A stretch of 21,887 nt of DNA, from IMG/VR virus record IMGVR_UViG_2534681878_000037. The stretch is one strand, 5' to 3'. This DNA comes from a virus (Duplodnaviria; Heunggongvirae; Uroviricota; Caudoviricetes). Each line of letters begins with the position of its first letter. The stretch's first letter is position 1. The position numbers were made by a program. This document shows positions 18,001 through 21,000 of this stretch, in pieces.

Positions 18001-21000
18001 TCCCGGCAACAGAAATGTTCAAAGTTATTCCACTGGCTCCGAGCCATGCCTACGGGATGTTTATGGAGCGCTTTAACGAGTTATCGGAGTTACGCACATG
18101 CGCATGAATGTTTTCGAAATGGAAGGGTTTCTTCGCGGGAAATGTGTACCACGAGATCTGAAAGTGAATGAAACAAATGCTGAATATCTGGTGCGTAAAT
18201 TTGCTGAAGCGGAGGCCAAGATTTTGGCTCTGTCCGAAGACCAACAGAAAGCGATTGAGTCAATTAAGCAGGCTGATGCAGCTGTTAAGTTGGCACACGA
18301 GAAGTTTTCGGCGCTGGCGGCGGAGAATGCGGGGCTGAAACACGCAATGGCCGTAACTCTTGAGCATGTGTCGGTCACGGATGCAGGGCAGGCTGGTGTT
18401 GCTGCAATGATTATCAACGATGCCCTACACCACAGCGAAACTCCAGCCACCGATGCTTTCCTGGCTGAAATTCGTGCGGAAGCACGCAACGAGGGGATTA
18501 ACTATACCGCAAGCCGTCTTGCTGCTGCTTTCAATCACGGATTTATCAATAAGTCTTTACGTGAAGTTTTCGACGTTACACGCATGATTCTGTCAGCGAA
18601 AGAAGAGTTGGCTAATGAACCACACCCGATTGATGGCCTGTCCGGTGAATATGCGGAGAAATCCCTAGAAGAATGGGCGGAACAGATTCGCAAAGGAGGC
18701 AACCAGTGAGCGGAAAAAGAATGACTAACAGAGAGCTTGTTGATGCCGCGATTAAGCTTGCTGGTGATTTTTATTCAATGATGGGGTACGCGCATCGCCC
18801 TGGATTCAAATATTGGGAATCACCGCATCCGCAAGAGCAACTGGTATTTCAAATGGCCTGCCGTGCTTTTGAGGTTATTCGCGGTTCTGATGTGATGGAC
18901 GCCGTTGCCGACTTGGAGGATGAAGAGTGACCCAAATTAACTATCAGGCACTGCGTGAAAAGGCAGAGAAAGCAACTAAAGGAAGCTACATCGTAGGGCA
19001 TACATCTGTTAACCAGCACGGCAATTTAACAGGAGTTTTTGTTTGCCAAAAATGGAAAGGAGAACCCGGTGGCGTGATTGCGGAATGTCATGTTAACTGC
19101 CTGATTGAATCAGATGCTCAGGCTTATGCAAACGCTGAATTCATAGCAGAGGCTAACCCGGCTACCGTGCTGGAACTGCTGGATGAACGGGAAAGAAACC
19201 AGCAATACATCAAACGCCGCGACCAGGAGAACGAGGGGATTGCGCTTACGGTTGGGAAGCTGCGTGTTGAGCTTGAAGCAGCAAAATCAAAACTCAACGA
19301 GCAGCGTGAATATTACGAGGGAGTAATCGCGGATGGAAGTAAGCGCATAGCAGAACTGGAAAAACAATGCGCCGAATGGGAGCGAAAAGCATTAAGCAAC
19401 TTTGAAGAGTGTGCTGCGATGGCTGAACGTATCGAAGAGATGCAGACAAAATCTGCACCAGATTCGTTTGGCATCATCGGTGAAAATATTCGAACACAGG
19501 ACAATCGAATAACGTCAGATCCCATGTTTTGTGTGTATCAAAAGCGCGAAATCGCTGTTGATGCTGATTATGACCATGACCGGATTGTCTGGGTTGACGA
19601 AGATGGCAATGAAGCCAATAAACGCCATAGTCGTCGTCTCGAGCTACTTCATGAAAACTTTCGAGAGCCACCAGAAAAATGGCGGCGCGTTGCTGTGAAA
19701 GATATTGATGAATTCGTTACCTGCTGTTTCACCGAACAGGGTTGTAAAGACTACCTGGCAGTCAATGGTCACAATCTTCGCTTGCCATTTATATATGTAA
19801 AAAGCGGTTTCAGGAACGCTGAATATATCGGCATAAGAAACTGGCTTGCTGGCATTCGCATCAAAGGAGAGTGATATGGCGTTAACACACCGCGAACTCT
19901 GTCAGATTGCGTACAAGTTCCTTAAGCGCAACGGTTTCAAGGTTTGTTTTCATGACCGCTTTATAGCTGTAACCAGTACCGGAGAACAGCCAGATGCTAT
20001 GGGATTCAGAAATTCAGCATCATGCCTGATAGAGGCGAAATGTTCTCGTGCTGACTTGTTGGCAGATAGAAAAAAGCGTTTTCGTAAAAATCCGTCTCTT
20101 GGAATGGGCGACTGGCGATTCTTTATTAGTGAGCCGGGAATTATTTCAATTGAGGATTTACCACCTGGCTGGGGATTACTTCACGTTGTTAACGGAAGAG
20201 TACGGAAAGTACATGGGTGGCCCAAGGGTAATTGCTGTTGGGGTAATCCTGACGATAAGCCATTTACTGGAAATAAGTGAATGCGATTACATGTTGTCTG
20301 CATTAAGGCGCATGGAGTTGAGAGGGCACCTTAATGAAATATATGACGGTGTAATTGTTAATAAGAAAGAAGGAAACGCGGCATGACCACTATTACCGAC
20401 AAAGAACTGATTAAAGAAATCAAAGAGCGCATAGGCAGCTTGGACGTTCGAGACAATATTGAGCGCCGTGCTTATGAAATTGCACTGGCATCGCTGGAAG
20501 CAGAACCGATAGCGTGAGAATGCGGTGAAAACATAATCCTGTTTAACCCTGACACAGTTGAAGCATACGCAAAACGTGCGGAAATATCACCTAAACCACT
20601 ATTCTCCGCGCCGCCAGCGCTGGTAGTGCCTGATAAGTTGCCGCGTGAATACAGAAACGGTTGGCCTCTTGCGTATAGTGATTATGCTGAAGGCTGGAAC
20701 GACTGCCGCGAAGCCATGCTTCAGGGAGATAAATCATGATTAATCGTATCAAGCTGGAGCACATCCTCGAATATGCCAGGCAGCAGAGGCATATTGGTCA
20801 GCATTGTAAAATTCCACCAGGAGATATGGTTGAAATCATGGAGATTGCCATGCGCAAGGCTGGCAACTCTCCGGTAACTCCGGATGGTTGGATAAGCTGT
20901 AGTGAGCGAATGCCGGAGAAATACGATTTCGATATCTGGGTATTCTCTCCATCCAGAGGTGTTCTTGACGGGCTACAGTGGGATGGCTCGATGTTTACTG

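Follow-up and report, generated by a model that had tools for sequence, protein, structure and literature searches.

The internal TGA of an early-left accessory gene in a Shiga-toxin prophage of Escherichia coli O157:H7 type

How should a single in-frame TGA in the middle of an otherwise open phage gene be read? The question is raised by the virus record IMGVR_UViG_2534681878_000037 (Caudoviricetes), a stretch of 21,887 nucleotides (nt) analysed here as a whole and called the window. On its plus strand, at 20383-20739, lies a frame of 118 codons whose sole interruption is an internal TGA at 20515-20517. An earlier reading made from the sequence without database searches (the sequence-only reading) had left three options for this stop, namely decay, tolerated low-level readthrough or a base-calling artefact. 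Decay is the one backed by the evidence presented below, and the feature is very probably an ordinary nonsense pseudogene, produced by one point mutation in an accessory gene of a Shiga toxin (Stx) prophage. The window as a whole can be assigned, by its sequence identities, to an Escherichia coli O157:H7-type Shiga-toxin prophage.

The interrupted frame and its two alleles

When translated, 20383-20739 consists of 44 sense codons, the TGA at 20515-20517 and a further 73 sense codons closed by a terminal TGA (MTTITDKELIKEIKERIGSLDVRDNIERRAYEIALASLEAEPIA, stop, ECGENIILFNPDTVEAYAKRAEISPKPLFSAPPALVVPDKLPREYRNGWPLAYSDYAEGWNDCREAMLQGDKS, stop). The terminal TGA (20737-20739) overlaps the ATG at 20736 of a DUF551 gene in an ATGA, and at the other end the start ATG (20383) shares bases with the TGA at 20384-20386 that closes a frame containing a 31-codon open reading frame begun by ATG (ORF; 20291-20386). 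The 118-codon frame with its single stop and its ATGA overlaps at both ends, from which the sequence-only reading had argued for one coupled gene, is thus all present in the sequence. The frame pattern by itself is statistically not unusual: the window contains 22 cases of an open stretch of at least 44 codons beside one of 73 codons or more, and a mononucleotide shuffle about 5.8. As the pattern is ordinary in this comparison, the case for a single gene rests on homology.

That homology is close. Over the 357 nt of the gene, the window differs from O157:H7 strain 2149 only in TGA versus TGG, and the strain 2149 copy is annotated as the 118-amino-acid hypothetical protein WP_000207903.1. The copies in CEC13091 and in the yehV prophage of Z1832 (O157:H7) show the same single-base difference from the window gene, and TGG is also found in O145 RM9873. 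With the stop read as tryptophan, residues 1-117 of 118 match positions 1-125 of the 125 in the phrog_5117 profile (E = 5.6e-58). One real gene cut by one TGA, as had been proposed, is therefore borne out by a repaired protein that spans the whole family profile and lies one codon away from an annotated 118-residue protein, and the tryptophan codon suspected to align with the stop in uninterrupted homologues was found there. These alignments put the lesion at Trp45, where TGG became TGA through a G-to-A transition at 20517. A pseudogene is expected to have a near-identical intact orthologue with a sense codon one base away, which strain 2149 supplies, and a stop that is derived and confined to one lineage, which is what the allele distribution gives. 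Members of the family match phrog_5117 over its full length, as the window copy does, and have an uninterrupted frame of about 115-135 codons, which here is broken by the TGA at codon 45. On this basis the window copy can be classed as a disabled member of the phrog_5117 / WP_000207903.1 family. Its parts are as follows.

20370-20374, plus strand: Shine-Dalgarno-like AAGGA, 8 nt before the ATG at 20383 (read from the sequence; function putative).
20383-20517, plus strand: surviving N-terminal ORF of 44 sense codons and the premature TGA, predicted to encode MTTITDKELIKEIKERIGSLDVRDNIERRAYEIALASLEAEPIA, made up of the shared N-terminal module and the family's invariant linker (translation).
20477-20514, plus strand: invariant linker (gene nt 95-132) that encodes part of E-IALASLEAEPIA and ends one codon before the stop (alignment columns).
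20515-20517, plus strand: premature opal codon, Trp45 to stop, with derived base A at 20517 and ancestral G (TGG) (DNA alignment, allele 41-mers and the 'internal stop' call of the Prokaryotic Genome Annotation Pipeline, PGAP).
20518-20739, plus strand: C-terminal remainder of 73 sense codons and a stop, with a W-N-x-C-R-x-A-M-L motif (translation, family alignment).
20736-21086, plus strand: downstream DUF551 gene in ATGA overlap with the broken gene (PF04448, E = 4.9e-10).

The two alleles were traced with 41-mers centred on the site in 5,426 complete E. coli genomes. Megablast requires an exact 28-base word and each such word in the 41-mer spans the centre, so the queries are allele-specific. 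The TGA allele was present in 110 of the 5,426 genomes, and all serotypes given among the 60 matches listed were O157; the TGG allele was present in 385, including O157:H7, O145 and O111:H8. Eight phage records, all of Stx2-converting phages, contain the TGA 41-mer (among them Stx2c phage 2851, Stx2 phage 1717, Stx2a_F349, Stx2c_WGPS4 and Stx2c_WGPS6), and TGG is found in VT1-Sakai (gene H0067), YYZ-2008, Stx2a_WGPS8, phi330 and phiSTEC801-Stx1a. Because TGG occurs across several serotypes and diverse phages and TGA in O157 and Stx2 phages, the stop represents the derived state. The listed TGA copies match the window with 100% identity across 357-1301 nt, and the distribution as a whole indicates a stop that is real, derived and inherited with one prophage arm.

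The two alleles also meet within single genomes. At least six genomes contain both 41-mers (strain 350, ECP19-598, NE 1092-2, NZRM3614, Balcarce_24.2 and Z869), and many host genomes hold an intact copy, one base different, in another prophage. In O157:H7 strain Z1832 the intact copy lies in the prophage adjoining mlrA/yehV, and BLAST gives a second full-gene match in the same record. The TGA is a stable lineage-marking single-nucleotide polymorphism (SNP) of the sbcB-type (Stx2c) arm in O157:H7, one that could be used to trace this arm through inter-prophage recombination, as in the window, where the arm is joined to an Stx1a body. In a few genomes (CV261, NZRM3614 and AC-5) the TGA 41-mer occurs twice, and of all its locations in the set one is on a plasmid. 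One of the two copies in NZRM3614 lies near 1.777 Mb, where related strains have the TGG 41-mer, which suggests gene conversion between paralogous prophage copies.

Gene family and module structure

The gene sits in the early-left region, between an ea22-like gene and xis/int, and belongs to a large family, with 1,619 homologues at E<=1e-5 in a large protein collection. The closest cluster representative of the repaired protein has 99% identity over 100% coverage, and UniRef gives the name 'Eaa protein' to a member with 79% identity. When 32 diverse homologues are aligned, the family proves strongly mosaic, with N-terminal and middle modules that vary and with some members fused to DUF551. The linker IALASLEAEP(I/V)A is invariant, IALAS, A40, P42 and A44 being constant across the 32 sequences, and the C-terminal motif W-N-x-C-R-x-A-M-L is nearly so. 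At codon 45 none of the 32 has a stop; W, E, S, Y or a gap stands there and the frame continues, and every aligned homologue that has the 'WECGEN' module begins it with W. No homologue among the 32 ends at codon 44 with a separate gene after it, the arrangement that would have spoken against a single gene in the sequence-only reading.

Many other prophage genes, yfdT, DUF551 genes and 'Eaa' among them, open with a copy of the N-terminal module (nt 1-126/128) at 87-98% identity, and partial BLAST matches break at about nt 95 and at nt 126-134 of the gene. Between flanking modules that are unrelated, the 38-nt stretch at 20477-20514 (encoding ...IALASLEAEPIA) is invariant among the yfdT-like, DUF551-fused and 'Eaa' variants. 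This stretch probably marks a joint of mosaic recombination, at which lambdoid ea regions would shuffle their modules.

Clues to the function of the intact protein were few. A Pfam scan of the repaired protein matched no family, a PHROG search matched only PHROGs of unknown function, and a profile search against solved structures gave nothing significant (best E = 0.16). An AlphaFold2 model built on the 99%-identical representative was of moderate quality (mean predicted local distance difference test score, pLDDT, 73.6; predicted template modelling score, pTM, 0.45). It predicts a helical hairpin at residues 6-39, a beta-hairpin from residue 44 and two further helices. Compared with PDB folds the model gave no match at E<=0.001, and in BFVD it matched only uncharacterised phage proteins.

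Consequences of the stop and how else it may be read

In the history that we propose, the G-to-A change at 20517 would have a single origin, in O157:H7, on the int-proximal arm of its sbcB-integrating Stx2c prophage, and the TGA allele would since have been inherited with that prophage arm. A ribosome that starts at 20383 would stop once it has joined 44 residues, and its product would be no more than the N-terminal helical module. The conserved C-terminal part encoded at 20518-20739 would no longer be translated, save by the small fraction of ribosomes in which Trp-tRNA misreads the UGA, giving exactly the wild-type protein. With the AAGGA kept 8 nt before its ATG, the truncated ORF probably continues to yield the 44-residue peptide when the prophage is induced. 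The DUF551 gene, annotated as intact (WP_000610373.1), has its own Shine-Dalgarno sequence (GGGAG at 20724-20728, 7 nt before its ATG) and therefore need not depend on coupling to the broken gene.

In phage lambda, growth does not require the genes that lie between exo and int; pL drives their transcription, and in the lysogen they are kept repressed. By this analogy the broken gene should be silent in the lysogen, and the mutation should be nearly neutral. Loss of the gene appears to be tolerated, because it lies in an accessory-gene region, because on the lambda analogy it should be silent in the lysogen, because phages deposited as complete Stx2c phage genomes carry the TGA allele, and because intact copies exist in another prophage of many hosts.

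Several points weigh against so plain an account of a dead gene. We infer both the loss of function and its neutrality from sequence comparison. The listed TGA copies have no further decay inside the gene, which is what a young clone would show and from which relaxed selection is not demonstrable. The misreading tRNA inserts the ancestral Trp and so restores the native sequence, and the W45-opal allele may on that account be a strong hypomorph and not a null. Finally, the 44-residue product is a conserved N-terminal module with its own Shine-Dalgarno sequence, and it may have a residual role.

The hypomorph leads to a reading in which the leaky UGA is meaningful: reading of the UGA by Trp-tRNA would supply less of the wild-type protein, though still a useful amount, and the allele would be kept as a down-tuned version of the gene. 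UGA is the leakiest stop in E. coli; its misreading by Trp-tRNA has release factor 2 (RF2) as a competitor and is measurable in a K-12 reporter, where readthrough rises from about 2% at 37 C to 4% at 25 C (PMC10570021). Some low-level readthrough is thus physically expected at 20515-20517, and its native product and the absence of secondary lesions inside the gene in the copies examined would suit this reading. However, G after UGA, the context found here, is not the weakest for termination in E. coli, as Poole, Brown and Tate are said to have reported in 1995. Strains other than K-12 have a more efficient RF2 than K-12 itself. For these two reasons we expect readthrough in the window context to stay below the K-12 figures of about 2-4%. 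The UGA is also present in no other aligned family member and is confined to one clonal prophage arm, and the lack of further decay is expected anyway in a clone as young as O157:H7. A useful leak of this kind is consequently very improbable, and we give as little credence to its fuller form, in which a few per cent of the wild-type dose would be made beside the 44-residue module in bulk and retained because that ratio is advantageous or harmless. In this form of the reading, Trp-tRNA misreads UGA more often at low temperature and in some metabolic states.

Signals of programmed recoding were looked for directly. A conserved stop, as programmed readthrough would have, was found in 0 of the 32 aligned homologues. 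The flanks of the stop and the sequence downstream are the same in the TGG and TGA alleles, leaving no stimulatory context or structure specific to TGA, and a 101-nt stretch that takes in the stop and the sequence after it gave a fold no more stable than those of shuffled versions (z = −1.04). Rfam models, scanned over 19800-21887 at E<=1, yielded no matches, and with them no selenocysteine insertion sequence (SECIS) hairpin 3' of the UGA. Programmed readthrough and selenocysteine are thus not supported by the sequence, and of the tolerated low-level readthrough suggested earlier, the misreading itself is expected and nothing points to its being selected or programmed.

A sequencing error, or selenocysteine or another recoding of UGA, is in our view vanishingly improbable. 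A single-base change is the commonest kind of error and UGA is the codon for selenocysteine (Sec). Against this, different laboratories, with varied technologies and between 2008 and the 2020s, obtained the same base in 110 independent complete genomes and in 8 phage records, which excludes the base-calling artefact once considered for 20517; and the homologues have Trp, not Cys or Sec, where the UGA stands, which is followed by no significant hairpin.

A split gene remains to be weighed, in which the 44-residue module would act alone, or the C-terminal part would be made by re-initiation at CTG 20539 or GTG 20626, or both. The N-terminal module is indeed an independent mosaic unit that precedes many different C-terminal parts, and its ORF retains its own Shine-Dalgarno sequence. 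Both halves are listed as coding sequences (CDS) in phage 2851, and a 37-residue C-terminal ORF of Stx2a_F349 is present in UniProt and BFVD. These 'half' annotations are, however, descriptive labels for a broken gene and not evidence of expression, and the family alignment contains no example of such a split. Canonical starts near the stop are also lacking: the nearest ATG after it (20520) is out of frame and its frame ends after two codons, and the first canonical in-frame start is GTG 20626, which leaves only 37 codons. We consider the split very unlikely.

Origin of the window, neighbouring lesions and nearest relatives

The interruption is already on record as a pseudogene. RefSeq/PGAP enters exactly this frame (CEP72_RS31180) as pseudogenic, noting an 'internal stop', and Stx2c_WGPS4_05 and Stx2c_WGPS6_08 are labelled 'pseudogene'. 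In phage 2851 (FM180578) the two pieces appear as EP2851_05 and EP2851_04, hypothetical protein, 'N-terminal half' and 'C-terminal half', the latter called from a CTG start that corresponds to 20539 in the window. Beyond correct annotation the significance of the stop is small, and it opens no new mechanism.

The gene upstream is damaged as well.

19876-20386, plus strand: 171-codon phrog_9263 / phrog_631 gene with a 5-nt deletion (CAGGT) between 20277 and 20278 (split PHROG matches, alignments).

By their PHROG matches, 19846-20280 and the final 35 codons of the frame at 20048-20386 belong together as parts of this one gene that lie in different frames. The deletion is seen against the Z1832 yehV prophage and against the intact 516-nt Stx2c_WGPS4_06, and once the 5 nt are re-inserted the 171-codon frame is open and ends in the ATGA overlap. 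The preceding 31-codon ORF (20291-20386) of the sequence-only reading is not a gene but the out-of-frame C-terminal tail of the 171-codon gene, to which the broken gene was once coupled; the upstream ATGA overlap is therefore what remains of that coupling. Phage 2851 has both the TGA and the same CAGGT deletion, and Stx2c_WGPS4 has the TGA without the deletion, so that the TGA is the earlier of the two and the lesions accumulated stepwise. In FDAARGOS_293 the same Stx2c prophage also has an IS1203 inserted in an exo-like gene. The region is decaying, and it provides an example of stepwise accessory-gene decay near the integrase end of resident Stx prophages. For the upstream gene PGAP instead calls only a 179-nt 'frameshifted' fragment (19876-20054), judged against a 58-amino-acid protein that stems from a copy with a different 2-nt deletion, that of the Z1832 yehV prophage.

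The window is itself a mosaic of two prophage types. Positions 18926-21887 match the sbcB Stx2c prophage of FDAARGOS_293 along its integrase-proximal arm with 99.9% identity (20000-21300 is 100% identical to this arm and to the other records listed), and positions 1-19286 are 99.4-99.7% identical to the Stx1a prophage of the same strain, except for 13705-15013. Identity with the Stx1a (yehV-type) prophage holds up to 19173 and with the Stx2c (sbcB-type) arm from 18969, which places a crossover at 18969-19173, within the ea22-like gene (18927-19874). Neither the whole window nor the joined arrangement was found in one piece in any complete E. coli genome or phage record searched, the best covering 85%. 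In O157:H7 strain pv15-279 the prophages with stx1a and stx2c sit at sbcB and yehV, swapped from the usual (PMC8309913), and this kind of arrangement fits the one seen in the window. An IS1203/IS629-like element of 1,316 nt (13700-15015; ORFs 13758-14084 and 14081-14971), 99.8% identical to an IS1203-family copy in FDAARGOS_293, lies where the FDAARGOS_293 Stx1a prophage is continuous across a ParA-family gene. A short patch at 93-790 is highly divergent from that Stx1a prophage, with many substitutions and indels.

This crossover bears on a second stop in the window. A NanS-p-like gene (SASA esterase / DUF6645; frame 1296-3242, minus strand) is interrupted at 2103-2105 (...SHFSA, stop, ARRG...) by a TGA that replaces TGG of the intact 648-residue WP_000142933.1. 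The sequence-only reading had pointed to the almost identical contexts of the two stops, and the resemblance is genuine: both are TGG-to-TGA changes with an Ala codon before and a G after (GCG TGA G at 20515-20517, GCC TGA G in the NanS-p gene). A link between them did not hold up. The NanS-p stop lies on the Stx1a side of the crossover and the stop at 20515-20517 on the Stx2c side. The former is one of only two SNPs between 791-13704 of the window and the FDAARGOS_293 Stx1a prophage, and its allele-specific 41-mer was found in none of the 5,426 genomes, so it is private to the window sequence and either a recent mutation or a sequencing error. Given the opposite sides of the crossover and the counts of 0 versus 110 genomes, the two stops arose in different ancestral prophages at different times, the one at 20515-20517 being old and widespread. 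The shared 'Ala before, G after' results from two Trp codons whose contexts are unrelated, and it appears to be a coincidence. A Dcm (CCWGG) deamination hot spot behind both changes was considered and rejected: only the NanS-p site lies in CCTGG, and a change at its methylated position would produce TAG instead of TGA. Stops that look alike may thus have unrelated histories even within one window.

Among known systems, the Q-beta A1 protein resembles the window gene in having a phage UGA that Trp-tRNA can misread into a longer product. In Q-beta, however, the coat gene naturally ends at the UGA, which is conserved, and the phage cannot do without the extension, whereas the window UGA is a derived stop that arose recently by mutation within a gene, is missing from all the aligned homologues and bears no sign of selection. 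The nearest relatives are phages 2851, 1717 and Stx2a_F349 and the loci WGPS4_05 and WGPS6_08, which have the same 41-mer centred on the stop and, as in the window, adjoin a DUF551 gene and an sbcB-type integrase. Phage 2851 also shares the 5-nt deletion in the gene upstream, unlike Stx2c_WGPS4, where the 171-codon gene is intact. The window differs from this group in that the arm is attached to an Stx1a-type and not an Stx2c body, across the crossover at 18969-19173. The WP_000207903.1 copies (for example H0067 of VT1-Sakai and those of O157:H7 yehV prophages) have a 357-nt gene identical save for one base, again with an ea22-like gene upstream and a DUF551 gene downstream in ATGA overlap. 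Unlike the window gene they have TGG at Trp45 and encode the full protein, usually in a yehV-type prophage with a different integrase.

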